Shown: one piece after another, positions 1 to 14,483 of the stretch
Layout: each line of letters starts with the position of its first letter
Position numbering within the stretch: the first letter of the stretch is position 1
DNA from: a virus
Strand: one strand, 5' to 3'
DNA length: 15,700 bases
IMG/VR virus record: IMGVR_UViG_3300017923_000002
Coordinates: 1 to 15,700 of that record
Notes under the pieces: model-generated
Told to the model about the DNA's origin: nothing
The model's database searches: none
Seen by the model: only the letters and a program-made list of their open reading frames with translations
Translations under genes and position numbers: made by a program

Positions 1-123
1 ATAGAGGATTCACTTGCAGCACAAAGGTTGATCAGGAAATTGGAAAATCTTCCCGAACATCGGAGAAGGAAATTGATCGGAGAGCTTGAAACAGGGGAAC
101 TTGCCATGCCTGAAAACAGGGAC
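1..123. repeat. Terminal direct repeat, copy 1 (identical to 15578-15700)
   Basis: Base-by-base identity read directly. The repeat runs to the window edge, so its true extent cannot be determined. Confidence 0.97.
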
Positions 124-306
124 GAAAGACTTATCACGCCGAAAGAGTTCGCGGAAAAATGTCGCGTATCTGATCAAACCGTCCGCCGATGGTGGAAGGA
201 TGGAAAGATCCGGGGCCGTCGGGTGGGGCCGCGAAAGATCTTTCTGTATGAAAGCGACATCGAAAAGATGTGGGAACCAGGACCAGGGGAAGAAAGGGGG
301 GAATGA
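1..306 (+). CDS. MerR/excisionase-type HTH DNA-binding protein, with its 5' end cut by linearisation. The true start is probably ATG 15566 (about 105 aa). The in-window alternative is TTG 28.
   Basis: ITPKEFAEKCRVSDQTVRRWWKDGKIRGRRVG...IFLYESDIEKM is a typical excisionase/AlpA-like winged HTH. The frame is open from position 1 and continuous with 15566-15577 (atg ggt aaa cgc). AGAGGG lies 6 nt upstream of that ATG. Confidence 0.7.
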   Translation: MEDSLAAQRLIRKLENLPEHRRRKLIGELETGELAMPENRDERLITPKEFAEKCRVSDQTVRRWWKDGKIRGRRVGPRKIFLYESDIEKMWEPGPGEERGE

Positions 307-656
307 TGGGCGACTTCAAAAAAACAAAGCATAAAAAAAGATCTGGAAGATGTTTTGAGCTTGCCTTTTCGTATCTATTAGGGAACGAAGACAAAATTCT
401 TGTTCATGGATCTGTTCAACACATATCTGGAAATCAAATGGCACATGCTTGGATAGAAAACCATGAAGGTGATGTTTATGATCTTGTTAAAAACGAAATA
501 TATAATGGTGATGAGTATTACAGAAAGTTTAACGCACGAAAAATGTTTTCCTACACGGTAAAAGATGCAGCAAATAAATTTACAGAACATAATCACAGTG
601 GACCTTGGGAGCAATCAGTAAGGGAGATTGATCAAGTTATATGCGCGGGAAAATGA
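303..656 (+). CDS. Small papain-fold (transglutaminase-like) cysteine peptidase candidate, AT-rich cargo gene
   Basis: GRCFELAF (Cys), MAHAWIE (His) and VYDLV (Asp) occur in transglutaminase-core order and spacing. The start ATG overlaps the upstream stop (ATGA), and a G-rich RBS precedes it. The region is visibly more AT-rich than its flanks. Confidence 0.45.
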   Translation: MMGDFKKTKHKKRSGRCFELAFSYLLGNEDKILVHGSVQHISGNQMAHAWIENHEGDVYDLVKNEIYNGDEYYRKFNARKMFSYTVKDAANKFTEHNHSGPWEQSVREIDQVICAGK

Positions 657-698
657 TCCGCGCTGTCCTGGAGCGACAAACACAAGGAGGGAACCATC

Positions 699-914
699 AT
701 GGAACTGGTAGGGCATCTTTTCGAGGACGGGCAACACAGCTTCAAACTTATGCCGGTAATTCCAGGGAACAGAAATCCGAACAATCCGCTTTTTGACGGG
801 CCTATGGGTGAAATCAGGGACTACTTACAGCAAAAATACGGGAAGCGGGGATACAAGATCACGTCCACGCGGGACGCTGATCATGGTGGTTTTGAAGTTT
901 ACGCCAACACATAG
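699..914 (+). CDS. Hypothetical protein (71 aa)
   Basis: AAGGAGG (684-690) lies 8 nt upstream of the ATG. The ORF is followed directly by an intrinsic terminator. Confidence 0.6.
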   Translation: MELVGHLFEDGQHSFKLMPVIPGNRNPNNPLFDGPMGEIRDYLQQKYGKRGYKITSTRDADHGGFEVYANT

Positions 915-943
915 GGCCGGGCCTTCGGGCCTGGCCTTTTCTT
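915..943 (+). terminator. Rho-independent terminator
   Basis: 9-bp GC stem GGCCGGGCC/GGCCTGGCC (one G-U pair) with a TTCG tetraloop, then TTTTCTT. Starts 1 nt after the stop at 912-914. Confidence 0.8.
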
Positions 944-955
944 CAGGGGGCCGGG

Positions 956-1561
956 ATGGACAAATTCCAAGACATTGAAAAAGCCAAGATCAAAATCATG
1001 GGGAAAAACGGACAGGGAGTTTATGTTGGGAATAACCTTTTCTTGACCGCCGCGCATTGCATCAATTTTAAGACTTCCGGTTCTATGGTTCTTGGGGATC
1101 ACTTCATTGAAGACATTGAGATCCAGGGGCAAAGGTTCCGCGTTGCGCCTTGGGCGATTGAACCAATAAGCGATATTGCCGTTCTTGGACCTTTGGATGA
1201 TCAGGTTTTCCCGGACGACGCAGATCGTCTTGAAGACTTTTGCGAAGATTTGAATCCGGCTTTGATCAACACGGTAGAACCGGAGCTTTTCCAGGAATTC
1301 GAGATCCACGTTTTCAGCCATGAAGGGGGCCAAGTACCAGGGAAGGGGGAAGTTTGCAGTCCTGGTTCAAAGTCCCTGTTCATCGAAACAAAGGATGAAA
1401 TTAAGGGCGGAACGTCGGGCGGACCCATAGTTGACGAGTCCGGGGGATTGGTGGGGATCGTTTCGAACTTTTCCGGGAATGACAATACGGGAGTTCATCC
1501 AAGACCGCATTTGACTTTACCGCTTTGGGTTCTCCGTAAATTAGAAGGGGCCGCTTTATGA
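956..1561 (+). CDS. Trypsin/chymotrypsin-fold (S1-like) serine protease, cytoplasmic, protease domain only
   Basis: Catalytic triad motifs in canonical order: LTAAHC (His), SDIAVL (Asp), GGTSGGPIV (Ser). No signal peptide is apparent. The stop overlaps the parA-like start (ATGA). Confidence 0.8.
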   Translation: MDKFQDIEKAKIKIMGKNGQGVYVGNNLFLTAAHCINFKTSGSMVLGDHFIEDIEIQGQRFRVAPWAIEPISDIAVLGPLDDQVFPDDADRLEDFCEDLNPALINTVEPELFQEFEIHVFSHEGGQVPGKGEVCSPGSKSLFIETKDEIKGGTSGGPIVDESGGLVGIVSNFSGNDNTGVHPRPHLTLPLWVLRKLEGAAL

Positions 1562-2178
1562 TTATCGCCGTATGTTCTGAAAAAGGCGGCACAGGAAAAA
1601 CAACACTGGCCGTCAATCTGGCCGTCCATTTGGCTGATCAGGGCTTTACTTTGATTGACGCTGACCGCCAAGAGTCCGCGTACCTATGGGCCAAGATCCG
1701 CGCCGACGCCGGGATCAAGCCAGAGATACAAACCAAAAGGATACACAAGGCAACGCTGCACAAAGAGTTGACCGGGAACGCGGTAATTGATTGCGGTGGT
1801 AGAGATTCCGAAGTCCTACGCTCCGCGCTCCTGGCCGCTGACCTTGTGTTGGTTCCAAGCCGACCGTCGCAATTTGATCTTTGGTCACTTGAAAGCATGA
1901 ACGATTTAATCGCCGACGCCGGGGGATTTAACCAAGAATTGAAAGGGATCGTCGTTTGGAACCAGGCCGCCACTAATCCAGGAGTTCACGACGATCAAAC
2001 CGCCGCCAAGCTTGTCCGGGATCTGGAGAGCCTTGACCTGGCCGGGACGGTTCTTCGTTCGCGGGTTGCCTATGCAAGATCCGCATCTGAGGGCCAAAGC
2101 GTTGAAGAGTTCGAGCCACGGGGAAAGGCCGCCGGGGAGATATCAAGCTTATTCCGGGAGATTATGAAATGGGTTTGA
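1558..2178 (+). CDS. parA: ParA/ParF-type (type Ib) partition ATPase
   Basis: Deviant Walker A at the N-terminus (CSEKGGTGKTT), LIDADRQ, and Walker B-like VIDCGG. The 206-aa size is typical of ParF-class proteins. Confidence 0.85.
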   Translation: MIIAVCSEKGGTGKTTLAVNLAVHLADQGFTLIDADRQESAYLWAKIRADAGIKPEIQTKRIHKATLHKELTGNAVIDCGGRDSEVLRSALLAADLVLVPSRPSQFDLWSLESMNDLIADAGGFNQELKGIVVWNQAATNPGVHDDQTAAKLVRDLESLDLAGTVLRSRVAYARSASEGQSVEEFEPRGKAAGEISSLFREIMKWV

Positions 2179-2456
2179 AGAGGAAACCAAAGGATGAACA
2201 AGAGTTTATCGAGCAGGGGACGAACCAGGACCAGGACCAAGAGCAAGATATACATCTTTGGCCTGAGCCTTGGGACGAGTATCGGGCCGGGCCGAAGAGC
2301 TTCAATATCCGACTGGAAGCCGAAGACTACGCAATGCTTCGATGGTATTTCGAGGAGCACTCCAAGGCCAAGAGCCTACAAAAATTGATCAAGGGCATAA
2401 TAAGAAAGGAACTAACTGATAAGATTGACGATTTGAAGAAAAATGGGGAAATTTAA
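2169..2456 (+). CDS. Ribbon-helix-helix ParG-like centromere-binding/partner protein
   Basis: Overlaps the parA-like gene by 10 nt. Has a basic then Q/D/E-rich flexible N-tail followed by a KSFNIRLEAEDYAMLRWY beta-strand/helix pattern typical of RHH (CopG/ParG) proteins. Confidence 0.6.
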   Translation: MGLKRKPKDEQEFIEQGTNQDQDQEQDIHLWPEPWDEYRAGPKSFNIRLEAEDYAMLRWYFEEHSKAKSLQKLIKGIIRKELTDKIDDLKKNGEI

Positions 2457-2476
2457 AAATTCATCTTATGTATCCC

Positions 2477-2505
2477 TTGACTTGTACAGTTTAGTGTAAT
2501 AATAT
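2477..2505 (+). promoter_or_regulatory. Sigma70-type promoter
   Basis: TTGACT (2477-2482), exactly 17 bp spacer, TAATAT (2500-2505). GGAGG lies downstream at 2521-2525. Confidence 0.7.
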
Positions 2506-2533
2506 TTTAGTCAACACAACGGAGGTGCTGACT

Positions 2534-3253
2534 ATGGCTGAAGGTGGTTACACTGCAAAGGATTTAAGCGGGTTCACCACGGGCAGTAAGTATCGCAGGG
2601 TTTTGAATCAAATCGAGCAAGGCCAAATTTCACCGGACATCGAGGACGCCGGAGGTAGGGGAACCTTACGCCGATTCAGCTTCGACCAAGCGATACGATG
2701 CGCGTTCTTGAATTACTTTTATGAAAACTTTATCCATGACTCTAAAAAAAGTTACGAGATCATGGACGCCGTTTACTACATGCTGCCGACAATGATCAAC
2801 AATCACAAAAACGAAACGAAAGGCTTCCCGCGCTATTGGTTGCTGGCGATAAACAAAGAAGATCTGTTTACCGGCTGTTCTTTTGATCTGGACGGATTCG
2901 AGCCGGGAGAAGATGAACGGGATGGTTTGACCCGAATAGAAATAGCAAGGAATATTTTTAATCCAGACATTTCAACGACTATCTGGTTCAAAAAGAATGA
3001 CCATTTCTTACCGTCAAACGTGCTTCCAGGTTCAGGCTCCGTGCCAAGCGGTTTCCCTGTCCCAAAAAAACCAAAGATCGAAAGACCACGGGGGGCCTTG
3101 CCAGGGATGCACGGGTTTTGCTTTTTTGACCTTCAGTTCCTTTATGATAAATTTTGCTATCAACTGAATGTTAATTATAATAAGCAAAACCTGTTATTTG
3201 CTGATATAAAAGACGCGGACCCTGTTAACTTCTTTATGAAACTTGAAAACTAG
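2534..3253 (+). CDS. Hypothetical protein with a MerR-like N-terminal HTH; candidate regulator
   Basis: YTAKDLSGFTTGSKYRRVLNQIEQGQISPD...GGRGTLRRFSFDQAIRCAF resembles a MerR-type HTH plus wing. GGAGG lies 8 nt upstream of ATG 2534 (GTG 2525 is the alternative start). The 3' third is AT-rich. Confidence 0.55.
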   Translation: MAEGGYTAKDLSGFTTGSKYRRVLNQIEQGQISPDIEDAGGRGTLRRFSFDQAIRCAFLNYFYENFIHDSKKSYEIMDAVYYMLPTMINNHKNETKGFPRYWLLAINKEDLFTGCSFDLDGFEPGEDERDGLTRIEIARNIFNPDISTTIWFKKNDHFLPSNVLPGSGSVPSGFPVPKKPKIERPRGALPGMHGFCFFDLQFLYDKFCYQLNVNYNKQNLLFADIKDADPVNFFMKLEN

Positions 3254-3268
3254 ATTGGAAGTGAAGCT

Positions 3269-3502
3269 ATGATGAAGGACGACCGCTGCGAGAATTGCAA
3301 GTTCTGGAAGAGGGAAGAGGTTAAAAGTCCAGATGATGAAGTCATTGCCGGGAACGATGGATATTGCCGAGTCAATCCGCCGGTGATCCTTGGCGAACAT
3401 GATCATGGGTTTTTCCCTAAAACCTGGTGTGATTGGTGGTGTGGTTGTCATAAGAGGACGGGGGCGAGTAAACCAGTGGATGATTTAACCAGGAAGGGGT
3501 GA
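3269..3502 (+). CDS. Small Cys-rich (CxxC...C...CxxxCxC) putative zinc-binding phage protein
   Basis: CENCKFW...GYCRVNPP...WCDWWCGC pattern. I recall similar small Cys-rich proteins being frequent in phage early regions, though I cannot verify this here. Confidence 0.5.
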   Translation: MMKDDRCENCKFWKREEVKSPDDEVIAGNDGYCRVNPPVILGEHDHGFFPKTWCDWWCGCHKRTGASKPVDDLTRKG

Positions 3503-3505
3503 AGC

Positions 3506-3814
3506 ATGATAGGAGAAAAAATTTATTCTTGCCGGGTAAGATTGCAATCAGGCCAAGAGGAAAACCTGTTTGTCCATGCCGAAACAGAAGAAGAGGCCAA
3601 GTTCGCCTTGACTTCTGATCCCAACATTGAAGTCCTTAATGTCTTGCCTTTTTTGGGGTTCGATAAAGTTATGGGCCGGGGTACTTCGTCGCCGCGTCTC
3701 TTGATCAACGCCGCTGGATTCAAGCGTTGGGCTGAAAGCTCCGTTGGTGGTTACAAGGGGCTGGACGTCGCCGACAAGGTGAAGGAACTGATTGATTCCA
3801 GGGTGGTTGGATAA
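3506..3814 (+). CDS. Hypothetical protein (102 aa)
   Basis: AGGAAGGGG RBS upstream of the ATG. Co-oriented and tightly spaced with the upstream gene. Confidence 0.5.
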   Translation: MIGEKIYSCRVRLQSGQEENLFVHAETEEEAKFALTSDPNIEVLNVLPFLGFDKVMGRGTSSPRLLINAAGFKRWAESSVGGYKGLDVADKVKELIDSRVVG

Positions 3815-3820
3815 AAGAAA

Positions 3821-3848
3821 GCCCTGAACCGAAAGCCGGGATCAGGGC
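3821..3848 (+). terminator. Hairpin after the operon end; weak terminator candidate
   Basis: GCCCTGA (3821-3827) / TCAGGGC (3842-3848) 7-bp stem with a 14-nt loop. No T-tract follows. Confidence 0.3.
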
Positions 3849-3862
3849 GGGGAACAGGACAT

Positions 3863-3941
3863 CATATTCCTGACTTGGTGGTACTTGTCAGAATATGGCT
3901 TTCCTTCCCCTTTTGTCAATTCCCCTGGTTCCGGCATAACT
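3863..3941 (+). promoter_or_regulatory. Imperfect inverted repeat (operator candidate) plus a putative promoter for the primase gene
   Basis: CATATTCCTGAC (3863-3874) and GTCAGAATATG (3887-3897) pair with a 1-nt bulge. TTGTCA (3913-3918), 17 bp spacer, ATAACT (3936-3941). Confidence 0.35.
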
Positions 3942-3965
3942 TAAAAGATATGCTGGAGATCCGCC

Positions 3966-6491
3966 TTGTCTGAATCCGCAATCGACAAATTCCGATCTGA
4001 ACTTGAATCGTTCGGTATATACCCGACCGAGATCATACCCGATGGACAACTTCACAGGTGCTCCGCGCGCGACGGTGATCCGCAAGATGAGGCCGGATGG
4101 TATGTTCTCCATAATGACGGGAAACTTTACGCCGGGGCTTTTGGATCTTGGCGGTCAGATGTTTGGGAAACGTGGTGTTCTAAGCAAAAGCACCTATCCA
4201 ATACCGAGAAGCGCAATCGGAAAAAGTTTATCGCGCAAGCCAAGGCCAGGTTTCAAGAGGCCAAAGCGGAACGCCGCGCGCAAGCGGTGGAGAAAGCGAA
4301 GGGTATCCTTTCCAAAGCGCAAGCCGCCGAAAATCATCCTTACCTTGCCAATAAGCAGATCAAGTCTTTTGGTTTGAAGATATCCAAGCGGGGCGATCTT
4401 CTGATCCCGGTTCATGATCTTCAGGGCCGCTTGTTTGGTTTGCAGACGATAAATTCCGAAGGCGACAAGAAGTTCATTACAGGTTCCGATATCTCCGGGC
4501 ATTTCTGCAAGATCCCAGGGGATGAACAGCTTATCATCTGCGAAGGATACGCGACCGGGGCCAGTATTCACGAGGCGACCGGGGGGACGGTGTTTTGTGC
4601 TTTCAATGCCAACAATTTGAAGCCGGTTGCCGCTGCGATCCGTAAAGCATACCCAAACGAAAAAATCATAATCGCCGCCGACAATGACCAGTTCACAGGG
4701 GCGGACCCGCTGCATGGTGCGCCGGAGAACCCAGGGAAAACCAAAGGGGAAGAGGCCGCGCGCTGGAATGTTTGCTTCTTGACCTGGCCGGAGTTTGAAG
4801 AATCAGACCTGGCCGACAAGCCAACAGATTTCAATGACCTGCATGTTCGCTATGGTTTGGAAGCCGTCGCCGCTGCGATCCGGGCCGCCGTACATATCAA
4901 GGCCGCGATCGAGCTTGAAGACGGGAAGATGATTGAAGAGGCAAACAAGGTTGAAAAGATCCTTGGCCTCAAGAATGTTGACATCTTTTGCCGCGGGCAA
5001 ACCATCGTCCGACCTATCTTGACGGAAACCGGAACCTTTTCGGAGATCAAGCAAAAAAAGAAGACGCCGAAGATCCATGAAGTGACCCAAAGTTATTTCA
5101 GGGGGCTTTGTGGCAAACATTGCCGATTCCTGAAGCGGAATAAAGACGGGGATCACTACGAGCAGAATCCGCCGCGATATATCGCCGAAGAATATCTTTC
5201 CCGCGTTGGTGAATGGAACCTTCGGACCCTGGCCGCGATCATTGAGGCACCAACAATGAGGCCGGACGGTTCAATCTTAGATAAGCCAGGATATGACCCG
5301 GATACCTTTCTTCTCTACTGGCCGAACGAAAAATTCTTTCCCATTAAAGACAAGCCGACCAAAGACGACGCACGGGCCGCGCTGGACGTTCTCCTGGATC
5401 TGATATCCAGTTTCCCGTTCGTAGATGATGCTGATCGTTCCGTCGCTCTGGCCGCTATTCTTACGCCGCTTGTCCGTCGTGCAATGCCTATTGTTCCAAT
5501 GTTTGGTTTTACCGCGCCGACGCCGCGAACAGGCAAAAGCCTTTTGGTGGATATCGCTTCCATGATCTGCACAGGGAAGAGGATTCCAACAATGGCGCAA
5601 GGATCAACAGATGAAGAGCTTGAAAAAAGAATTGATTCGTCAATCATCCGCGGGGATAACCTGATCAATATTGATAACGTCGAACGCCGAATAAAATCTG
5701 AACGCCTCTGCCAGTTTGTGACACAAGAATCGTCCGTTACCAGAATTTTGGGGGAATCAAGAAACGAAACCTTGCCTTTGATTCTTACGATTTTCAGCAC
5801 GGGAAACAATCTTGCTTTTGCCGGGGACATAAAAGAAAGGGTTCTGTATTGCCGTTTGGATGCAAGATGTGAACGACCGCAGGAAAGGCATTTTGACCGG
5901 GATCTTTTCGAGTACATACCGGACAACAGGCCGAAGATAGTCCACGCCGCCTTGACCTTGCTTCGAGCTTGGGTTTGCTCAGGTGAGAATCCAAACATAA
6001 GCCGTTCAGACTTCACGAAATGGGATGCACTTATCCGAGGTGCGCTCTTGTGGCTGGACCAGGCGGACCCTTGGGATACGTCCGAAGTGGTGCGGGAAAC
6101 AGATGTTTACGCGCAGAATATGCGATCCTTCTTTTCTATCTGGCATGAAACCTTTGGTGAAAGAAGCGTGAATGTTCAGGAGATAACCAGGGCCGCAGAT
6201 AATGACAATGAGCTTCAAGACGTGCTTTACGCGATAGCCGGGAGACATGGGAAGTATGATCAGAAAGCCTTGGGCTATGTTCTGCGAAGCAATAAACACA
6301 AGATTTTCGACGGACTTCAGCTTGTCCATGATGGGACCAAAGGCCGGAACAAGATCGTTCACTGGAAAATGGTTGATATGCACGGGCCGCAGCAAAAATC
6401 TGAAAAGGTGGTTCAGTTGCCGACCAGGGCAAACCAAGCACAAAAACCAACACAAGGGCCAGGCGGGAAGAATGATATCGAAACCATATAA
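3966..6491 (+). CDS. Replicative primase-helicase: TOPRIM (DnaG/P4-alpha-like) primase fused to a C-terminal P-loop NTPase
   Basis: TOPRIM motifs LIICEGYATGASIHEATG and IIIAADNDQ. N-terminal GWYVLHNDGK..GAFGSWRSD resembles P4-alpha/plasmid primases. Walker A-like APTPRTGKSLL followed by NLINIDNVE. TTG start with GGAGA 7 nt upstream. Confidence 0.85.
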   Translation: MSESAIDKFRSELESFGIYPTEIIPDGQLHRCSARDGDPQDEAGWYVLHNDGKLYAGAFGSWRSDVWETWCSKQKHLSNTEKRNRKKFIAQAKARFQEAKAERRAQAVEKAKGILSKAQAAENHPYLANKQIKSFGLKISKRGDLLIPVHDLQGRLFGLQTINSEGDKKFITGSDISGHFCKIPGDEQLIICEGYATGASIHEATGGTVFCAFNANNLKPVAAAIRKAYPNEKIIIAADNDQFTGADPLHGAPENPGKTKGEEAARWNVCFLTWPEFEESDLADKPTDFNDLHVRYGLEAVAAAIRAAVHIKAAIELEDGKMIEEANKVEKILGLKNVDIFCRGQTIVRPILTETGTFSEIKQKKKTPKIHEVTQSYFRGLCGKHCRFLKRNKDGDHYEQNPPRYIAEEYLSRVGEWNLRTLAAIIEAPTMRPDGSILDKPGYDPDTFLLYWPNEKFFPIKDKPTKDDARAALDVLLDLISSFPFVDDADRSVALAAILTPLVRRAMPIVPMFGFTAPTPRTGKSLLVDIASMICTGKRIPTMAQGSTDEELEKRIDSSIIRGDNLINIDNVERRIKSERLCQFVTQESSVTRILGESRNETLPLILTIFSTGNNLAFAGDIKERVLYCRLDARCERPQERHFDRDLFEYIPDNRPKIVHAALTLLRAWVCSGENPNISRSDFTKWDALIRGALLWLDQADPWDTSEVVRETDVYAQNMRSFFSIWHETFGERSVNVQEITRAADNDNELQDVLYAIAGRHGKYDQKALGYVLRSNKHKIFDGLQLVHDGTKGRNKIVHWKMVDMHGPQQKSEKVVQLPTRANQAQKPTQGPGGKNDIETI

Positions 6492-6492
6492 T

Positions 6493-6782
6493 ATGCGGGT
6501 GATACGCGGGTGATGCGGGTGATGAAATTTTCGCATGACCCGCGTGCTATCTTCAGTGAATACAGTTGTTTATAGAAATTGCGGGTGATGACGGGTGATC
6601 AATGAACTCTTAAGGACTTTTTGAAATGGTTTTTTATATTCAACAGGGAAAAAACATATATATAAATATAAGGGGAGTGTTCTGATACCCCGCAATGACC
6701 CGCATAACAATACAAGTATCTGAAATGTATATCAATACGCCGCGGGTGATGGTTTTTCGTATGACCCGCACATGACCCGCAC
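6493..6782. other. Origin of replication: iterons flanking an AT-rich unwinding element
   Basis: GCGGGTGAT at 6495, 6506, 6515, 6581 and 6742 (degenerate ACGGGTGAT at 6591). The related motif in opposite orientation, ATGACCCGC, at 6535, 6695, 6761 and 6772 (degenerate ATACCCCGC at 6685). AT-rich core about 6601-6670. Immediately downstream of the primase-helicase gene. Confidence 0.75.
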
Positions 6783-6794
6783 ATGAGGAATTTT

Positions 6795-7136
6795 ATGTCT
6801 GGTTTGATCTCCTACCTTGAACGCCATTGCCTGATCGTTTGGTTTGCTCCGAATGAGGGCATCAAGGTTGCCGGGTTATCGCAGCTGGAACCAGGCACAC
6901 GGGATAGGCTCCGGGGAATGATGAAGACGCGCAGGGCTGAACTTTTGGATACCGCGCCGGTGTTGGTGAGCCACGACGAAGAGGCCGGGGAATATGTCCT
7001 GGAATATGCAGATGGTTCAATCCGGTTCGCTTATGCTCCTTTGTTGGATGGACCGGGGGTTGATCCTGAGCGGTGGAAACGGGTTTTTGGGGAAACTGTA
7101 AAGCAGGGGGAAGAGGTTTATGAATACGAAGTATAA
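6795..7136 (+). CDS. Hypothetical protein; the N-terminus resembles a TubC_N-like docking motif
   Basis: GAGGA lies 5 nt upstream of ATG 6795 (ATG 6783 is the alternative). LISYLERHCLIVWFAPNEGIKVAG...RDRLRGMMKTRRAELLD resembles that helical docking pattern. Confidence 0.5.
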   Translation: MSGLISYLERHCLIVWFAPNEGIKVAGLSQLEPGTRDRLRGMMKTRRAELLDTAPVLVSHDEEAGEYVLEYADGSIRFAYAPLLDGPGVDPERWKRVFGETVKQGEEVYEYEV

Positions 7137-7350
7137 GATCTTGCAGATCGTCGCGCCTACTGTCCCAATGGTTGCCGTTCATAAGGATGAAGACGTGGAA
7201 TTCCCGATTCCTGTTTCAATTTGGGCATTGATTGAAGAGGAAGATGGATATCAAAGGATCATTGGCTTTAGTGCTGGCGAATTTATGGATTCATGCGAAG
7301 ATGCAGGGAACTTCGTTCGATATGAAGAGGCGGAAAAATGGGAGAGTTAG
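7120..7350 (+). CDS. Small strongly acidic hypothetical protein (76 aa)
   Basis: G-rich RBS upstream. 16 D/E versus 6 K/R counted by eye. Overlaps the upstream gene by 17 nt. Confidence 0.5.
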   Translation: MNTKYKILQIVAPTVPMVAVHKDEDVEFPIPVSIWALIEEEDGYQRIIGFSAGEFMDSCEDAGNFVRYEEAEKWES

Positions 7351-7370
7351 GCCGTCCTAACTTTGTTTTT
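7346..7370 (+). terminator. Short intrinsic terminator candidate
   Basis: GTTAGG/CCTAAC 6-bp stem with a CCGT loop, followed by TTTGTTTTT. Includes the stop codon. Confidence 0.45.
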
Positions 7371-7460
7371 GGTTAACGGATTCAGGGCCAGGTTGACAAG
7401 GCGGGGGTGAAAGGCTTCCCACGAAGGGTTTCAACTTGCAAGCCGGGGGTTTCGCCTTCT

Positions 7461-7491
7461 GGTTTGGTTCGGTTCGGTACGGTTTGGAACC
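7461..7491. repeat. Helically phased GGTT/GGTA repeat array A
   Basis: GGTTTGGTTCGGTTCGGTACGGTTTGGAACC. GGTT at 7461, 7471 and 7481 (10-bp phase), with GGTT/GGTA at 7466 and 7476. Shares GGTTCGGTA(c/t)GGT with array B. Confidence 0.7.
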
Positions 7492-7523
7492 ACAAATAAA
7501 GTCCAGAAGATAAGGTGGATATC

Positions 7524-8006
7524 ATGTCAGAAAAGCCACGGGATACGCAGGGACGGTTCACAAGGTCAAATCCAGGGGGGCCGTCTAAGGAGAAGACGCC
7601 GAAGGATATCCGGGATCTGATTCGCAAGATGGAAGACGGGCATCTGGACCGCCGCCGTCGCATGGCAAAATTGATTGAAGAGGGCCGCGAACTCTTGGGG
7701 GTTTGTGATCCTGAAGAAATAGCAGTCCAGGTTCTTGAACATGACATTGCCACGAACCTTGCCATTGAACGGGTGATCCTGGAGCACGCGAACGAACGGG
7801 AAGATCTGATCGACGAAAGCGGACAACTGATTCCCGCGCTTTCAACTAATCTCTTGAAGTACCAAGAGGCCAAGAGGAAGTCACTGATCGAGCTGAACAG
7901 GATATACGCGCGCCGCCGGGAAGAGGATCGGGCGGACAAAATGACGCGGGACGTCGCGGACATCATCCTGGACGACCAGGGGGGCGACAATGAAGACGAC
8001 GAATAG
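7524..8006 (+). CDS. Small terminase subunit candidate
   Basis: Its position is upstream of terL. The N-terminal GRFTRSNPGGP motif resembles the GxF..NPxG motif seen in many proteins encoded upstream of terL. Has a coiled, charged central region and an acidic C-tail. AAGGTGG lies 5 nt upstream of ATG 7524 (GTG 7515 is the alternative). Confidence 0.5.
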   Translation: MSEKPRDTQGRFTRSNPGGPSKEKTPKDIRDLIRKMEDGHLDRRRRMAKLIEEGRELLGVCDPEEIAVQVLEHDIATNLAIERVILEHANEREDLIDESGQLIPALSTNLLKYQEAKRKSLIELNRIYARRREEDRADKMTRDVADIILDDQGGDNEDDE

Positions 8007-8175
8007 GTGTTCCCACTGCGGGGCCGAGATCGACCGCCGCCGGGGTTATTGTCTGGAATGTGAACGTCGCCTTGGGGAACTGGATCTGGAAACCATCGTC
8101 CGGGCCTTGGCACGTCTGCCAGTGGAGAAACGCCGCGCGATCGTCCGGGGCCTGAACCTGGAGTTTGGCCGATGA
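7990..8175 (+). CDS. Small zinc-ribbon protein (CxxC-x11-CxxC)
   Basis: CSHCGAEIDRRRGYCLEC. Overlaps the TerS-like gene by 17 nt, and its stop overlaps the terL start (ATGA). Confidence 0.5.
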   Translation: MKTTNRCSHCGAEIDRRRGYCLECERRLGELDLETIVRALARLPVEKRRAIVRGLNLEFGR

Positions 8176-9833
8176 GATTCACAGCCGACCAGGTTCGCAA
8201 GTGGAAGGACGGGGCCGCCGGGTTCGAGCAGTGGATAAATGATATCCAGCCAAGGATCATATCTCCCAGGGGCGGGTTCCAGGTATTTGAGTTCGCCGAC
8301 TTCCAGCGGGACGCGATACGCCGGGCCTTGCAGGTTGACCAGGACGGGAACTGGAAGTTCGGGACCATCGGGTTCAGCTTTCCGCGCAGACATTCCAAGA
8401 CGACCTTGAACGCGCTTCTGGTTCTATGGCGGTTCACGCTTTGGCAAACCGAAAACATCAAATGTATGGCGAATTCCGAACGTCAATCTATCTCCGTTGG
8501 CTTCCAGACCCTGAAATCCATCATCCTGAACACTCCGTCGTTGGTTGCTCAGATCGGAAGGGATAACGTCCGTTCATACGAGATCAGATACCCAAAGCTG
8601 CAAAACCTGATTGAAGCCGTTTCCCTGAACATATCCAGCCTATACGGTGAGCGGATTACCGTCGGTTGGGTTTCCGAGATCCACGCCGCGCCGTCTGAAG
8701 AGCCGATGCAAGTCCTGGCTTCCAGCTTGGGCGATTCCCTGAACTCTTGGCTTTTGGTTGATTCTACGGTGGACGCAGTGGGCGGGCCGCTTCATAGGAT
8801 GGAACAGCTGCAAGAGTCCGGGGAAGATCCGACGGTGTTCATCTATCGCATTGAATACGCGGACCTGGCCGAAGCCTTGGAGAAATCGCCGCCTTGGATA
8901 CGCCGGGACTGGTTGAATTCCAGGGCCAAACAGCTTTTGCCTGCCGTCTTTGCTACGCAACATCTGAACCAGAGGGCCGCCGCTGCGAACAACTTGTTTG
9001 CGATCCCGGACATTCGCGCTTGCCAGGAAGACGACGTTCCGAATCCGATTCCAGCCGCTTCATTGGATAGCATGTTCCAGGGGCGGAAATACGTTTGTGG
9101 TGGTGGCCTGGACCGCGCTTTCTTTGGTTCAATCCACGGGGATAAGACGATCTGGACGACGGTTGCCAAGGTTGCGGACCCTGAGAGCAAAGAGCCGGAA
9201 TACTGGATCTTGAATCAGCAAAATATCCTTGGATCTTTGGGGCGGGGGATCAAGAAGGCGATCCGCGAGGACATGGACCGTTTCAAGCTGAAGAACATAT
9301 CCCTGGAATCCTACAATTCGCAGGACATATTCACATGGTGCCTTGAGCAAGGATACCCGGCTGAAGTGATCAGTCCGACCAGTACCACGCAAGCGAACGC
9401 CTTCCCGGAGCTTTATCGTTTGGTTAAAGAACATCGTCTGCGGTTTTCTTATGAGTTAAAGGGCCTGGCCGATGAAATGGAAACATTCGTCTATGAGCTG
9501 AAGAACGGGATTCCAAAGTTCGGGTGCGACAAGTGGCACGACGACCGGATTTATTCCTTGTGTTGGGCCGTCTACGCGCTGCGGAACAAGGAACTGGCTA
9601 CCTATGAGCTAAAGGACATTCACTGCAAGTCCAGGTCTCCGAACGCGCATCTTTGCTACCTGAGACAAGGGGATCTGATCTTGCCATGTTCAAACGAATG
9701 TCCAGCACATTACCACGTTCTGAAGATGTATAACCAATACAGGGAAAGCAACATTGAATCCGAAGCGACGCTGCCGGAGTTTTTTCGGGGAATGGTGAAG
9801 GTGGCCGGGGTGAAGTCATACAAGATGATTTGA
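8172..9833 (+). CDS. terL: Terminase large subunit
   Basis: Walker A-like FPRRHSKTTLNALL (the xRxxxKT terminase style), Walker B-like ITVGWVSE, and an RNaseH-fold nuclease-like GGGLDRAF...DDRIYSLCWAVYAL. The size and the position upstream of the portal both fit. Confidence 0.85.
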   Translation: MRFTADQVRKWKDGAAGFEQWINDIQPRIISPRGGFQVFEFADFQRDAIRRALQVDQDGNWKFGTIGFSFPRRHSKTTLNALLVLWRFTLWQTENIKCMANSERQSISVGFQTLKSIILNTPSLVAQIGRDNVRSYEIRYPKLQNLIEAVSLNISSLYGERITVGWVSEIHAAPSEEPMQVLASSLGDSLNSWLLVDSTVDAVGGPLHRMEQLQESGEDPTVFIYRIEYADLAEALEKSPPWIRRDWLNSRAKQLLPAVFATQHLNQRAAAANNLFAIPDIRACQEDDVPNPIPAASLDSMFQGRKYVCGGGLDRAFFGSIHGDKTIWTTVAKVADPESKEPEYWILNQQNILGSLGRGIKKAIREDMDRFKLKNISLESYNSQDIFTWCLEQGYPAEVISPTSTTQANAFPELYRLVKEHRLRFSYELKGLADEMETFVYELKNGIPKFGCDKWHDDRIYSLCWAVYALRNKELATYELKDIHCKSRSPNAHLCYLRQGDLILPCSNECPAHYHVLKMYNQYRESNIESEATLPEFFRGMVKVAGVKSYKMI

Positions 9834-9840
9834 GGGAAAC

Positions 9841-10377
9841 ATGATCATACTACAAGACACAAGAGAACAGCGACCGTTCACCTTTGAGCGGTTCGACGAT
9901 GTAATGGTTCAGGCTGAAGGGTTGCCGGTGGGCGATTATTCGATCCCTGGTTTCACTGATCGGGTGGGGATCGAGCGCAAGGAATTGAACGACCTGATCG
10001 GGTGTTTCACTTCAGAGCGGGAACGGTTCGAGCGTGAGCTTTCCAAGGCCAGGCATTTTGAGCTTTTTTGTATCGTGGTTGAATCCGAGCTTTCCGACCT
10101 GGCCGACGGAAATTACAGATCCGAGATGAACCCGGCATCCGCGATTCAAAGTATGGTTGCCTTTATGGTTCGTTATCGGGTGCCGTTTCTGTTCTGCAAG
10201 GATCGACGCGGGGCCGAATACATGACGTATTCACTTTTGACGAAATACGCGCGGGAATTAGAAAAACGATATCAGCACATGACTAAGCACTGTTTCAGTG
10301 AAGCTGAGGCCGAGAAACAGCTTATTGGTTTGCAAGGTAAGATGCAGGGGAAAAAGTCGAATGTGAAACGAGCGTGA
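9841..10377 (+). CDS. ERCC4/XPF-Mus81-type structure-specific nuclease
   Basis: DTREQ...VGDYSI...GIERKELNDLIGCF matches the ERCC4 signature GDx(n)ERKxxxD. GAGGGA RBS upstream. Confidence 0.75.
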   Translation: MIILQDTREQRPFTFERFDDVMVQAEGLPVGDYSIPGFTDRVGIERKELNDLIGCFTSERERFERELSKARHFELFCIVVESELSDLADGNYRSEMNPASAIQSMVAFMVRYRVPFLFCKDRRGAEYMTYSLLTKYARELEKRYQHMTKHCFSEAEAEKQLIGLQGKMQGKKSNVKRA

Positions 10378-10402
10378 AATATCTACCTTGGAAGGGTAAA
10401 GC

Positions 10403-10618
10403 ATGTATGACGACGAAATTTTGGTGGGCCTGGACGAGATCCGGGTTTTTATGAGACGTGGAAGGCGAACGGTTTTGAAGATGTTACAGAACGGGGAAAT
10501 CCCTGCAAAGATGGTTCATGGTGCATATATGACCACGAAATCAAGGATCATTGCATGGCTGAACGATCAGCCAGTGGACAAGGTAACGAATAACCACGTC
10601 AAGGAACTGAAGAGATAA
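10403..10618 (+). CDS. Excisionase/AlpA-like HTH DNA-binding protein
   Basis: VGLDEIRVFMRRGRRTVLKMLQNGEIPAKMVHGAYMTTKSRIIAWL has the typical small winged-HTH layout. Confidence 0.6.
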   Translation: MYDDEILVGLDEIRVFMRRGRRTVLKMLQNGEIPAKMVHGAYMTTKSRIIAWLNDQPVDKVTNNHVKELKR

Positions 10619-10630
10619 CGAATTGACCAT

Positions 10631-10772
10631 TGAACCAAACGGTTGGGTTCGGTATGGTACATGATAGAGTCAACCGGGTGGAAACCATACGGTTGCAAAC
10701 GGTACCGAACGGTTCCAAGTGGTACCATATAGAACCAAACCAAACCAGACCAGGCGAAACCATATAGAACCA
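10631..10772. repeat. Helically phased AAC|GGT(T/A) repeat array B, plus a 14-bp direct repeat
   Basis: GGTT/GGTA at 10641, 10651, 10691, 10701, 10711 and 10721. Decamers ending in xAC run through 10631-10770. GGTACC at 10701 and 10721. ACCATATAGAACCA at 10724-10737 and 10759-10772. Confidence 0.75.
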
Positions 10773-12289
10773 TGCTATTTCAAAGCAAGGCTAAGGAATT
10801 AACTGATATCACATATCAGGCCGCAATATCTCAGGTGAACAATGAGCGCAAGGCCGAAGTTCGTCGCCGTCTGGATATGTACCACGACGACCAGGTGGAC
10901 TATCTCCGGGACGCGCTCCGCCGGAACTTCCAGAACCCGAAGGATTTGACGCCTTGCTTTATCAATATCGTCAAGAAGATCGTCGATAACCTGGCTATGG
11001 TTTATATCCGCGACGCAAGCCGGGACGTCGAGGGTAAGGAACGCGACCGGGAAATCTTCGCGGAAATCACGCGGACCAGTTCTTTACCCATCAAGCTGAA
11101 GCTGGCTTCGCGGTACACAAAACTTTTGAAATCCGTGCTTCTCCGTCCGGTTTGGAGAAATGGAAAGATGGATCTGGACGTCCTGACCGGCGACGTGGTG
11201 GACGTCGTGAGCGGGGATACGCCGGAAGACGTTCGTTCCATTATGGTTACGCATTTTCCCGAATCGAACCAAAAAGAAGACCTGGAATATACGCGCTGGA
11301 CGCCGGAAACCGTCGAGCGGTTGAACTATCGGGGCCAGGTGATCGAATCAGATCCGAACCCCTACGGGATCTTGCCGTTTGTTCCATGTTGGGACCGAAT
11401 CCCGACGTCTGACTTTTGGTTGCCGGGCGGGGATGATCTGATCGTCCTTCAGGAAGCCATAAACGAAAAGCTGACCGACCTACTTTATACGCTCCGTATG
11501 CAAGGCTTCGGTGTTGGTTGGGCCAGGGGCATGGGGGAAAATGAACCTTCCCTGGTAGGGCCTGGCACCATGTTCAACTTGCCAGAGGAAGGGGCGATCG
11601 GGTTTGAGTCAACCAAGGCTCCGATTGATCAGATCGTTGGCGCAATCGACAAGCTGATCAAGTGGGCCGCGATATCGAACGGGCTTCCCGCTGGATCTCT
11701 GAGCACCGAACCGACGGACGAATCCGGTGTTTCCAAGATCGTATCAAACCGGGAGCTGGACGAACGCCGCCGGGATGACGTCGCGCTTTGGGAGCAATAC
11801 GAGCGGAACCTTTTCGACGTATTCAAGATCGTTTGGAACGTACACAATCCGGGCCGCAAGATCTCCGAGTCGTCTTCCCTTTGGTTAGACTTCTACGATC
11901 CGAGTCCGCAGCAGGACCAGGCCAAGCAAGCCGAAACCTGGACCAAACTTCTGGCCGCCGGAGTGATCAGCCGGGTGGATGTCATTTTGGAGAAAAACCC
12001 GGATTTGAAGAGCCGGGACGAAGCCAAGGAATTCCTAAAAGAGATCGAGCAGGAACAAGCCGACTTCGCGCAGCCGGTGAACCTTGAGGATCTTCTGAGA
12101 GCCAAGAGCCTGAACGTATTACCGCGCGGGGTGATTATCAAGGAATTGGTACGCCGGGGGATTATCTCCGAAGATATTGATCCGGTGGAAGTGGAAGCCA
12201 TGTTTGCAAGTGAGAACCGGACCAGCTCCGCTTTTCCGCTGCGGACGACTGCACAAGACCGGGCCGCTTCATTGAACACGGAAGGATAA
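10772..12289 (+). CDS. Portal protein (putative)
   Basis: 505 aa, located downstream of terL and upstream of scaffold and MCP. The call rests on position, size and composition only. No SD sequence precedes the ATG. Confidence 0.6.
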   Translation: MLFQSKAKELTDITYQAAISQVNNERKAEVRRRLDMYHDDQVDYLRDALRRNFQNPKDLTPCFINIVKKIVDNLAMVYIRDASRDVEGKERDREIFAEITRTSSLPIKLKLASRYTKLLKSVLLRPVWRNGKMDLDVLTGDVVDVVSGDTPEDVRSIMVTHFPESNQKEDLEYTRWTPETVERLNYRGQVIESDPNPYGILPFVPCWDRIPTSDFWLPGGDDLIVLQEAINEKLTDLLYTLRMQGFGVGWARGMGENEPSLVGPGTMFNLPEEGAIGFESTKAPIDQIVGAIDKLIKWAAISNGLPAGSLSTEPTDESGVSKIVSNRELDERRRDDVALWEQYERNLFDVFKIVWNVHNPGRKISESSSLWLDFYDPSPQQDQAKQAETWTKLLAAGVISRVDVILEKNPDLKSRDEAKEFLKEIEQEQADFAQPVNLEDLLRAKSLNVLPRGVIIKELVRRGIISEDIDPVEVEAMFASENRTSSAFPLRTTAQDRAASLNTEG

Positions 12290-12292
12290 GCC

Positions 12293-12634
12293 ATGTCATT
12301 TTACCATAATGAAACAGATCTTTTGACCGGGGAAGGGACGCTTTCCGTATCCTCTGGTTACAACAGGCATCAACTGAAGATCGAAGCCTACAATTCAAGC
12401 GGGGAAGTCGCGGACGGTGTTTCCGCTTATGTCTCCGTTTCGGGCCGGGTTTCAGGGGCCACGGGGTTTGATCCTCTTGGAGAGATCCAGCTTTACAGTG
12501 GAAGGCAGATTTTGAAGATCAACGCCAAGGTTTCGGAATTAAAATTCCAGCCAAAGGACTTGACCCAGGAAGGACCGCCGGACGGTTTCCCTTCAGGTTA
12601 TTCATATAAAGTTTTTTGGAGAGCACTAGACTAA
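12293..12634 (+). CDS. Hypothetical structural-module protein (113 aa, beta-rich)
   Basis: GGAAGGA RBS upstream. Located between the portal and scaffold genes. Confidence 0.5.
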   Translation: MSFYHNETDLLTGEGTLSVSSGYNRHQLKIEAYNSSGEVADGVSAYVSVSGRVSGATGFDPLGEIQLYSGRQILKINAKVSELKFQPKDLTQEGPPDGFPSGYSYKVFWRALD

Positions 12635-12666
12635 TCCGCCGCCGGGCGTAAATCGGGGGGTTGATC

Positions 12667-13089
12667 ATGTCACAAGATCCGAATCAGAACCAGCACGTCG
12701 CCGCCGACGATACAGGCGCAAACGACCAGGGCCAGAACCAGAACCAGGGCCAAAACCAACACGACGGGCACGCCGCCGATAAGGGCGAAAAGTCGGTTCC
12801 GTATGCGCGCTTTCAACAGGTTAACGAACAAAAGAAAGCTGCAGAAGGAACCCTGCAGGAGTTGGTTGACGAATTAAAGCAGGATATCCCGGAGGATATG
12901 CAAGACCTGGTTCCGAACGGATTGAATCCGGCTGATCAAGTCCGCTGGATTAGAAATGCCATGAAAAAGGGCCTTTTCTCCCAGGGCCAGGCGCAAGACG
13001 GGCCAGACCCGAAGCGAGCCGGGGGGAAGCCGCCGACGGATTTTGAGGGCATGAGTCCACAATCCATCATGGCGCAAGGATACAAGTAA
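12667..13089 (+). CDS. Scaffolding protein (putative)
   Basis: Immediately upstream of the MCP gene. Q/N/D-rich disordered N-terminus, then VPYARFQQVNEQKKAAEGTLQELVDELK, a helical motif typical of phage scaffolds. GGGGGG lies 6 nt upstream of ATG 12667 (TTG 12661 is the alternative). Confidence 0.6.
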   Translation: MSQDPNQNQHVAADDTGANDQGQNQNQGQNQHDGHAADKGEKSVPYARFQQVNEQKKAAEGTLQELVDELKQDIPEDMQDLVPNGLNPADQVRWIRNAMKKGLFSQGQAQDGPDPKRAGGKPPTDFEGMSPQSIMAQGYK

Positions 13090-13112
13090 ACAACATCAAG
13101 AGGTGAACTGAT

Positions 13113-14027
13113 ATGTCTATCACTTTGCTTGAAGCTGCAAAATTGGTTCAAGATCCGCTGAAACGTGGGGTGATCGAGATCTTCCCGCGCGTATCTCCGG
13201 TTCTGGAACGCTTGCCGTTCTTTGGAGTTAACGGGCAAGCATACGTTTATAACCAGGAAGAAACCCTTCCCGGTGTTGCCTTTCGCGGGATAAATGAAAG
13301 CTATACCGAGTCAACCGGAGTCGTGAATCCGCAGACCGAACGCCTTTACGTCTTGGGCGGAACCAGCAAGGTTGACCGCGCTTTGGTTAAGACCCAAGGC
13401 AACGTCAACAATCTCCGGGCGACGTATGACGGGATGAAGGCAAAGGCCGTTTCCCTGGAATATACCAAGAAGTTTTTCAAGGGCGATAATTCCAGCGACG
13501 TGAACGAGTTCGACGGGCTGGAAAATCGTTTGACCGGGGATCAGGTGGTGGATCAGGGTTCCACGTCCGGGGGCGACGCGCTGACCCTTGCCAAGCTGGA
13601 CGAGATGATCGACCAGGTGCAGGGAACGCCGGACGTTTTGTTTATGAACAAGACGCTTCGCCGGAAAGTCAATACCCTGATGAGATCCGCAGGCCAGGCC
13701 ACGGAAACCGTGAGCGATTCCTTCGGGCGACAAATTCCCGCATACGCCGGAATTCCGATTGCCGTCGTCGAAGAGGATAAGGACGGAAACCTTATTTTGG
13801 CTTTCGACGAAGACAATCCGGGGGGCGGGACCGCCGCGTCCAGTTCCATTTACGCCGTCCGCTTCGGGGCCGCCGAATACGTTTCGGGCCTTCAGGCCGG
13901 TTCAATGGATGTGATAGACTTGGGCCTTGACGTAACTTACTATAAGACCCTGATCGAATGGATCACGGGCTTGGGTGTTTTCCATCCGAAATCCGCCGCC
14001 AGGCTCCGGGGCATCAAAAACGCATAA
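13113..14027 (+). CDS. Major capsid protein (HK97-fold candidate)
   Basis: 304 aa. GAGGTG RBS upstream. The N-terminal pattern LLEAAKLVQDPLKRGVIEIF...LERLPF..VNGQAYVYNQEETLPGVAFRGINESY resembles a recurrent phage MCP family. Sits after the scaffold gene. Confidence 0.7.
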   Translation: MSITLLEAAKLVQDPLKRGVIEIFPRVSPVLERLPFFGVNGQAYVYNQEETLPGVAFRGINESYTESTGVVNPQTERLYVLGGTSKVDRALVKTQGNVNNLRATYDGMKAKAVSLEYTKKFFKGDNSSDVNEFDGLENRLTGDQVVDQGSTSGGDALTLAKLDEMIDQVQGTPDVLFMNKTLRRKVNTLMRSAGQATETVSDSFGRQIPAYAGIPIAVVEEDKDGNLILAFDEDNPGGGTAASSSIYAVRFGAAEYVSGLQAGSMDVIDLGLDVTYYKTLIEWITGLGVFHPKSAARLRGIKNA

Positions 14028-14040
14028 TGGGGGTTAAACC

Positions 14041-14460
14041 ATGATTGATAATGATCTGATAATGAAAGACGCGGGTTTGGTTGCCAGCTCCGCAGCCGCC
14101 ACGGTGGGCGGGGAAGCTCAGGTGGTGGATGTCGGGGAAGGCATCGTCAAGGGCGAATTGGTGGTTGACGTGACCGCGATTGAAATCGCCGACAATGACG
14201 AGTTGTTCAAGATCAGCTTGCAGGGTTCAAGCAAGTCCGATTTCGCCGACACATTCGAGGATTTGGTGATCCTGGAGCTTGGGGCCGCCGAAGTGTTGGG
14301 CGGGGACCAGGACAGTACCACGGGCCGCTATGTGGTACCATTCCGAACCGAACGGAACCAAACCGTTTATGATCAGCTTCGCGTTTATACGACTGTAAGC
14401 GGAACCGTCGGAACGGGGATCAACTTTTCCGCGTACCTGCGACCGCAGACAAAGCAATAA
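14041..14460 (+). CDS. Capsid-associated (decoration/cement-like) protein candidate
   Basis: 139 aa, directly after the MCP gene. Beta-rich; motifs GELVVDVTAIEIADNDELFKISLQGS. Assignment is by position only. Confidence 0.4.
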   Translation: MIDNDLIMKDAGLVASSAAATVGGEAQVVDVGEGIVKGELVVDVTAIEIADNDELFKISLQGSSKSDFADTFEDLVILELGAAEVLGGDQDSTTGRYVVPFRTERNQTVYDQLRVYTTVSGTVGTGINFSAYLRPQTKQ

Positions 14461-14483
14461 ACCTTCAGGGTTTATATATATCG

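Follow-up and report, generated by a model that had tools for sequence, protein, structure and literature searches.

Why a gene for a trypsin-like protease should stand immediately in front of a plasmid-type partition pair is the question raised by a viral element recorded in IMG/VR as IMGVR_UViG_3300017923_000002. We analysed positions 1 to 15,700 of this record, referred to here as the window, with a focus on the protease gene, the ParA gene that follows it and a small third open reading frame (ORF), orf95. A preliminary description had treated these as one three-gene unit, and had proposed that the protease could be a displaced capsid maturation protease, a factor that interferes with a helper phage, or part of a non-canonical ATPase-protease system. 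Comparison with related loci makes it very probable that the protease is instead an optional single-ORF cargo cassette that belongs to neither the partition nor the capsid machinery. The enzyme comes from a known superfamily, and its own family is large, uncharacterised and travels as cargo of mobile elements.

Presence, absence and exchange of the protease cassette

Members of the protease family were collected in about 100 loci from IMG/VR, GTDB genomes and JGI metagenomes, 63 of which extend at least 650 bp downstream of the gene. In the survey of about 95 such loci, a ParA gene lies directly downstream of the protease only in a near-identical group (L001-L004, L006 and L009). A further member of this group, L005, comes from a contig that ends 77 bp after the protease, and the ParA genes of L037 and L051 are unrelated, larger and 2-4 kb away. 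Relatives of the window ParA were also found with no protease nearby. In L105 (ParA 71% identical to that of the window), the gene order is o179, hairpin plus leader, parA, o87 and o215, where o179 is the gene that precedes the protease in L001. Here, the hairpin and 'TTTTCTTCAGGGGGCCGGGATG' leader of the window and L001 are joined straight to the ATG of parA, and alignment of L105 with L001 places the homology break exactly at the two ATGs. In L106 (ParA 60% identical), a helix-turn-helix (HTH) gene and an unrelated 71-aa ORF, which overlaps parA by ATGA, are followed by parA, o87 and a homologue of orf242.

The closest comparison is provided by L109, the second half of the 27,380-bp IMG/VR contig IMGVR_UViG_3300035547_000130. 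Its orf95, orf77, orf102, TerS-like ORF, scaffold-like ORF, capsid protein and orf139 are 100% identical to those of the window, and its orf242 and primase are 99% identical. In this locus, orf71 is followed by only 12 nt ('GGGGGCCGCG') and then by the parA ATG, with both the hairpin and the protease missing. The linkage between protease and parA on which the preliminary description was built is accordingly not conserved among relatives, as L105, L106 and L109 all carry parA and its small ORF without the protease. The same 27-kb contig joins L009 (L001-like, with the protease) head-to-tail with L109 (window-like, without it). Either the assembly produced a chimera here, or the contig is a natural heterodimer or cointegrate that might be resolved by the serine recombinase.

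Both alleles also occur together in oil-field metagenomes, where runs X5 and X13 each contain a protease-less window-like contig as well as a protease-bearing contig with an o179-type upstream region. The protease-less joint runs from 907 to 1558 in X13 (depth 10.8, with the protease-bearing contig at depth 18) and from 916 to 1580 in X5 (depth 15.1, with the protease-bearing contig at depth 4.7). Sliding-window identity between the window and L001 is 95-99% over the hairpin and protease, drops to 85% and then 67% within parA, and reaches only 51-64% in orf95. Because a near-identical protease block fronts par genes with no more than 85-51% nucleotide identity to each other, these comparisons indicate that the hairpin-plus-protease block was recently exchanged between diverged backbones and did not co-evolve with par.

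The region upstream of the protease is similarly variable. The first ORF of this stretch, orf117, has a GC content of 0.34 against approximately 0.50 for the backbone and matches no family; in L109 and the oil-field contigs it is replaced by a different ORF with a C-terminal recombinase-like fragment, and L001 carries a 179-aa gene in place of both orf117 and orf71. The stretch from the HTH gene to parA is therefore a cargo hot-spot, filled in the window by orf117, orf71 and the protease.

Expression signals and the partition pair

The coordinates of the features in this region are collected in Table 1. The hairpin that precedes the protease folds into an 11-bp GC stem with a UUCG loop, followed by UUUUCUUC, and ends 12 nt before the protease ATG. 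It looks like an intrinsic terminator or attenuator, although it is absent from the output of a consensus terminator scan, and folding of the 71-nt hairpin region gives only z = -1.6 against shuffled sequences because this region is GC-rich. The promoter scan returned no sigma-70-like match between 900 and 956. The preliminary description had placed the three genes behind a strong terminator with no visible promoter of their own; the hairpin is present at the stated position, and the lack of a visible promoter holds.

Table 1. Features of the window in and around the protease and partition genes
Feature	Position	Strand	Description and basis
Variable cargo	303-914	+	orf117 (303-656, GC 0.34) and orf71 (699-914), upstream of the protease
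Hairpin	915-943	+	GC-rich, GGGCCGGGCC-UUCG-GGCCUGGCC, then a T-run; 5' part of the par-operon leader
Leader	944-955	+	Shine-Dalgarno-like run GGGGGCCGGG directly before the protease ATG; read from the sequence
Protease	956-1561	+	201 aa, stand-alone cytoplasmic S1/PA-clan serine protease; Pfam Trypsin_2, catalytic triad, AlphaFold2 model, Foldseek
ParA	1558-2178	+	206 aa, small type Ib ParF-like ATPase with deviant Walker A KGGTGKT; NF041546, phrog_164, 4dzz
orf95	2169-2456	+	95 aa, candidate ParG-type centromere-binding adaptor; synteny, motif, strand/helix/helix pattern
Promoter match	2477-2505	+	TTGACT-17-TAATAT, sigma-70-like, 9 of 12 positions; consensus match only

The gene overlaps proposed from the first reading were confirmed, with the protease TGA (1559-1561) overlapping the ParA ATG (1558-1560) as ATGA at 1558-1561, and ParA overlapping orf95 by 10 nt. 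The motif GGGGCCG is found in the leader (947-953) and again, in a near-copy of the leader run, ahead of the parA ATG (1547-1553). This 7-nt direct repeat coincides with ribosome-binding sites, of which it may be no more than a reflection, and is not claimed as a recombination footprint. Downstream of orf95, a gap of 68 nt contains the promoter match of Table 1, which likely marks the 3' boundary of the transcription unit.

The ParA protein has no N-terminal HTH domain and matches the NCBIfam model NF041546 ('ParA family partition ATPase') over its full length with an E value of 4e-47 and 160 bits, against an equivalog cut-off of 180. It also matches phrog_164 (E 3e-38) and the Pfam group ParA/CbiA/MipZ, and its best solved relative is ParF of TP228 (4dzz, residues 2-204, E 1e-12). 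An orf95-type small ORF always follows this ParA lineage (L001, L105, L106 and L109). The product of orf95 has a basic N-terminus (MGLKRKPK), an acidic, disordered and variable linker and a C-terminal strand/helix/helix pattern, and an alignment of its relatives shows an invariant N-terminal MxxKRKP and a conserved 'FNIRL..EDYAML...KSLQK.I' block. A homology search with orf95 returned a single cluster, while profile searches gave no significant Pfam or PDB match and only weak hints of MobC_2 and DUF6290. The AlphaFold2 (AF2) model is of low confidence (pLDDT 56), with residues 1-29 disordered and helices at 51-64 and 68-91. The preliminary description had called this a ribbon-helix-helix (RHH) gene, and the small overlapping ORF is indeed present. 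From its position, size, MxxKRKP motif and strand/helix/helix pattern, it is plausible that orf95 encodes a ParG-type RHH adaptor, and homology suggests that the pair would partition the episome in the ordinary type Ib way.

Type Ib par operons had been expected to begin with a centromere and promoter, in a space that the protease was thought to occupy here. There is indeed no room for either directly upstream of parA, and no array of centromere-like iterated repeats was found next to the par operon between 600 and 3400. However, the protease is not the cause, since its protease-less relatives are alike: parA is preceded by the hairpin leader only in L105, by an overlapping ORF in L106 and by a 12-nt gap in L109. 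Because parA has no upstream intergenic region of its own in these loci either, the missing promoter and centromere are a property of the lineage.

These data bear directly on the proposal that protease, ParA and ParG-like protein form one functional unit, a non-canonical ATPase-protease system in which the protease degrades a partition component or regulator, or ParA positions or activates the protease. In its favour, the ATGA and 10-nt overlaps are kept in the window and in the L001 group, and within this element lineage the cassette has been seen only at this position. Against it, parA and its small ORF occur without the protease in L105, L106, L109 and the oil-field contigs, no other lineage of the protease family has a ParA gene next to the protease, and a cassette that is 95-99% identical over par operons diverged to 51-85% identity shows no co-evolution. 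In addition, the full-length matches to NF041546 and 4dzz identify ParA as a ParF-type dimer ATPase, and we consider a dedicated ATPase-protease system very unlikely.

The protease family and its possible role in conflict

The reading of the protease as a single-domain, cytoplasmic S1-like enzyme was borne out. The motifs TAAHC, DIAVL and GTSGGP are found at residues 31-35, 73-77 and 152-157, and Pfam Trypsin_2 (PF13365) matches over all 144 of its profile positions (1-144; 40.7 bits against a cut-off of 27.6, E 5e-10). The N-terminus is polar with no hydrophobic signal sequence, and there is no second domain. In an alignment of 30 sequences with 36-97% identity to the window protein, His34, Asp73, Ser154, Gly152 and Gly155 are invariant, so that the catalytic residues, whose loss would have spoken against the preliminary description, are all kept. 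A PDB sequence search gave marginal matches only and structure prediction was therefore needed. The AF2 model built from the 30-sequence alignment (pLDDT 91.2, pTM 0.89) is a chymotrypsin-like double beta-barrel, and Foldseek returned 602 PDB matches at E ≤ 1e-3, led by MarP, HtrA2, DegS, SplA and V8. These leading matches, with template modelling (TM) scores of approximately 0.6 and 13-20% identity, place the model in the PA clan, and matches to viral structures were equally generic.

The protein is not an HtrA, DegP or DegS (S1C) enzyme in its architecture, as its single domain of 201 aa has no PDZ domain, signal peptide or anchor, and NCBIfam HtrA/DegS models score approximately 15 bits against cut-offs of 416-450. 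In PHROGs, only weak matches to a generic 'protease' family were obtained. The ratio of nonsynonymous to synonymous substitution rates between the window and L001 variants is approximately 0.2. The protease is probably catalytically competent, and probably an active cytoplasmic endopeptidase with a narrow target.

Could such an enzyme mature the capsid of the element? It had been pointed out that the head module has a scaffold but no protease. This is correct, in that TerL, portal, scaffold-like ORF and capsid protein are present with no recognisable prohead protease, and it provides the argument for a displaced maturation protease acting on the scaffold, capsid or portal protein. A protease-free head module is nevertheless expected here, because the portal is of SPP1 type and the head modules of Halcyonevirus have no annotated prohead protease. 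The cultured relatives of the capsid protein are found in Bacillus phage PK2 (54% identity) and the Paenibacillus Halcyonevirus group (approximately 51%), and the C7Cdelta module of the latter comprises TerL, portal, minor head protein, scaffold and capsid protein. To our knowledge, SPP1-like heads assemble without proteolytic maturation. The known prohead proteases of tailed phages have an assemblin-like (S77/S78/S80) or ClpP/S49 fold, unlike the PA-clan double beta-barrel of the window protease, whose gene lies approximately 10 kb from the portal in the par region. Moreover, the L109 copy of the element lacks the gene although its scaffold, capsid protein and orf139 are 100% identical to those of the window, and most family members are found in loci without capsid genes. 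A maturation role is thus hardly credible.

The family itself is extensive. A search of 5.8 billion proteins identified 230 relatives, nearly all of 200-250 aa, and an exhaustive profile search recovered 3,713 clusters (50% identity) at E ≤ 1e-3, of which 503 were matched at E ≤ 1e-30. The matches listed are essentially full-length and single-domain, and no fused extra Pfam domains were found in longer family members. By tblastn at E ≤ 1e-3, the protease matched nothing in 50,697 phage or 72,556 plasmid records, the family thus being absent from over 120,000 records of cultured phages and plasmids. Clustering of the neighbouring genes in the 63 loci with sufficient downstream sequence revealed no neighbour family common across protease lineages. 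The neighbour counts are conservative, since some of the ORFs that we called in high-GC loci are spurious.

Among 128 neighbours scanned with Pfam, tyrosine integrases were the most common, followed by serine recombinases, PD-(D/E)XK nucleases, REase-ARP and RadC. In L112-114, PrimPol, ParB_N, a TerS-like protein (GP3_package), HTH_17, RHH_3, orf150, the protease and an integrase are followed by chromosomal ilvD; the protease overlaps orf150 by ATGA and is the last cargo gene of this satellite-like island. In L007, a Desulfovermiculus metagenome-assembled genome (69% identity), the protease stands at the end of an integrated island that also carries PrimPol, a GpA terminase and a TopoVI-like gene, next to uvrB. 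The protease lies downstream of a D5-type primase in L020, with SieB a few genes further, and between the tail genes and integrase of a prophage in L102. It adjoins EVE-McrB and McrC in L103, together with methylases and Vsr, and HEPN-DUF499 and a second, larger trypsin-domain protein in L104. This second protein (L104, 4025-5491) has 488 aa and an SHD1 match, and is encoded two genes upstream of the family member, next to HEPN_Swt1-DUF499.

In L017 and L018, which are two ENA assemblies carrying the same protease, the gene has AAA_15/21 and nSTAND1 genes around it. A block of DruA, a 518-aa ORF and a 206-aa ORF immediately precedes the protease in L018 and is replaced by two small opposite-strand ORFs in the otherwise collinear L017. 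The protease therefore borders an indel hot-spot of defence genes.

Family members neighbour integrases, lie in satellite-like islands and prophage cargo regions, and accompany restriction or defence genes, which points to a role of the protease in the conflict between element, phage and host; we give this role roughly even odds. The enzyme would cleave a specific protein in the conflict of the element with helper or competing phages and the host. Interference or defence would involve targets in phages or the helper, and counter-defence targets in host immunity; our estimate is split between these two. Of the roles proposed by the preliminary description, helper interference is thus compatible with the genomic contexts.

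The gene is flanked within the maintenance region by the serine recombinase and HTH genes on one side and the par genes on the other, and this location could also suggest a toxin-like or addiction component of a stability region (resolvase, par and protease) that penalises loss of the element or excludes incompatible relatives. A free cytoplasmic protease is potentially toxic, and the small variable ORFs that often precede the gene could be inhibitors. However, these upstream ORFs share no homology between loci, L109 retains orf71 although it lacks the protease, and many members reside in integrated elements or chromosomal islands, where post-segregational killing means little. An addiction function is accordingly improbable, if less so than a maturation role or a dedicated ATPase-protease system.

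Trypsin-like proteases are also known from nuclease-protease immune modules (PMC12799240, bioRxiv 10.1101/2025.09.03.673762), in which the protease is fused to a sensor and a metallo-beta-lactamase (MBL) pro-nuclease gene is adjacent (PMC12799240). The window protease would then be the activator of such a trypsin-MBL module, of the kind found in Hachiman, AVAST, Lamassu and DRT variants. In PADLOC-DB v2, its best matches are indeed to the protease domains of RT-Protease_XI (1.4e-6), LmuA (9e-4) and Avs1b (0.027), but these are partial and weak, with E values of 1e-6 and above. The family is not a trypsin-MBL module, because the MBL motif HxHxDH is present in 0 of 560 neighbouring ORFs; members are also strictly single-domain with no sensor fusion. 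We regard this assignment as scarcely tenable.

The reading that we favour as a whole, with moderate confidence, is a conflict-related cargo gene that rides on the leader of an ordinary par operon. The par pair, with no promoter region of its own, would be read as part of a longer early gene string, with transcription probably starting at a more distant upstream site and passing the hairpin, a possible attenuator. The cassette sits exactly between the par leader (hairpin and Shine-Dalgarno run) and the parA start codon, where it would borrow the Shine-Dalgarno run of this leader and hand ribosomes on to parA via the ATGA overlap. Co-transcription with par, enzyme activity and the conflict role are the parts of this scheme that we infer.

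Several points weigh against this reading. In this element lineage the cassette has been seen only at the head of parA, and a local interplay between protease and par, such as a tuning of par expression, is conceivable, as is a supply of the protease in trans, since variants with and without the gene share samples. Metagenomic contigs may be chimeric, and the 27-kb contig does join two variants. The search of metatranscriptomes for read-through over the hairpin yielded a single 238-nt contig (2118-2355, depth 2.5) from an oil-field oligo-dT metatranscriptome, which spans the parA/orf95 junction, and nothing over the protease. The conflict role is argued by guilt by association; in PADLOC-DB v2 the protease has no significant match to a known defence or anti-defence profile, and the loci show no partner, sensor or inhibitor by which a free cytoplasmic protease would be kept harmless.

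If the cassette reading is right, the gene fusion is no new partition or ATPase-protease machine but a place where the cassette happens to have docked, and a tempting but mistaken lead falls away. It also leaves a clean natural case in which a cassette is exchanged with ORF precision at the leader of an operon, here in a satellite-like episome with both alleles present in oil-field communities. Furthermore, it draws attention to a stand-alone cytoplasmic S1 protease family of at least 503 clusters (50% identity, E ≤ 1e-30). More tentatively, and with less confidence than we place in a conflict role for the window protease, this may be a large undescribed family of single-gene conflict effectors of approximately 205 aa, exchanged by satellites, prophages and defence islands of environmental bacteria and cutting a specific protein of a helper phage, a competitor phage or host immunity. 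Were a substrate found, it would represent a minimal protease-only immune or counter-immune effector.

The element and its comparison with known systems

Bases 1-123 of the window are repeated exactly as bases 15578-15700, and run X1 contains the window sequence as a single circular 15,607-nt contig of even depth. This 123-nt terminal overlap and the circular contig show that the window represents an entire circular genome, 15,577 bp in size. The element was sampled in subsurface and oil-field metagenomes, and the full window had no megablast match in phage or plasmid collections. Every gene lies on the + strand. The order begins with a small serine recombinase, an HTH_17 protein, orf117, orf71, the protease, ParA and orf95, and continues with orf242, several small ORFs and a Toprim primase. 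These are followed by a TerS-like ORF, TerL, an ERCC4 nuclease and an HTH protein, and finally by an SPP1-type portal, orf113, a scaffold-like ORF, the capsid protein (phrog_212) and orf139. Tail and lysis genes are missing from the annotated gene set of the window, and from this gene content the element looks like a capsid-forming, satellite-like, tail-less episome.

The ERCC4-type nuclease gene (9841-10377) is located between TerL and portal, an unusual place inside a packaging module. Although the capsid protein and TerL of the window are 92-95% identical to those of the L001/L009 type, the serine recombinase (window 14890-15573) is only 32% identical to that of this type (L001, 7463-8131) and 85% identical to the L109 copy (5757-6434), and has therefore been swapped as a module between otherwise similar backbones. 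The only repeat clusters found are of the pentamer RAACC with a 5-nt phase, at 7461-7485, 10732-10771 and 14345-14359 (also 7014-7028), and RAACC-N5-RAACC has six matches against 0.17 expected. One precedes the TerS-like gene, one the portal gene, and the third is close to the 3' end of orf139. The first is inverted relative to the other two, and the clusters are candidate regulator, pac or centromere sites.

As a whole, the element resembles capsid-forming phage-inducible chromosomal islands (cf-PICIs) in its size of 15.6 kb and its set of TerS-like protein, TerL, portal, scaffold, capsid protein and primase without tail or lysis genes, a likeness of gene content only. In contrast to these satellites, it is apparently episomal, given the circular contig, ParA and small serine recombinase, and no chromosomal junctions were seen. 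The par pair is comparable to ParF/ParG of TP228, as the ParA protein is approximately 206 aa long, has no N-terminal DNA-binding domain, can be aligned with ParF over its full length and has a deviant Walker A motif, while the overlapping next gene encodes a small protein whose N-terminus is basic and flexible and whose C-terminal part shows a strand/helix/helix pattern. Unlike ParF/ParG, the pair is set in a longer string of co-directional genes, preceded in this variant by an unrelated protease ORF, and a search immediately on either side of it revealed neither a promoter or operator nor centromere repeats. The RHH fold of the orf95 product is putative.

The protease shares the double beta-barrel, the His-Asp-Ser order, the GxSGG oxyanion-hole motif and a C-terminal helix with MarP (Rv3671c), HtrA and DegS domains, and staphylococcal SplA/V8. 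Unlike these proteins, to which it is only 13-20% identical with TM scores of approximately 0.6, it is a cytoplasmic protein of 201 aa with no signal peptide, membrane anchor or PDZ domain, encoded by a stand-alone gene on mobile elements. With retron type XI RT-protease, the LmuA and Avs1 fusions and trypsin-MBL pairs, which provide its best PADLOC matches, it has in common the protease superfamily and an occurrence in defence islands and mobile elements. Those proteases are fused to a sensor or enzyme and paired with an MBL pro-nuclease, whereas the window family is stand-alone, with no conserved neighbour and no MBL partner.

As cargo, the cassette can be compared to the accessory genes in P4 and PICI hot-spots and to prophage morons, with which it shares presence or absence among near-identical backbones, an integrase-adjacent or module-boundary location, recent horizontal exchange and the borrowing of neighbouring expression signals. 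Where such cargo forms an autonomous promoter-gene-terminator unit, the window cassette is instead a single ORF fitted exactly into an operon leader and translationally coupled to the gene that follows.

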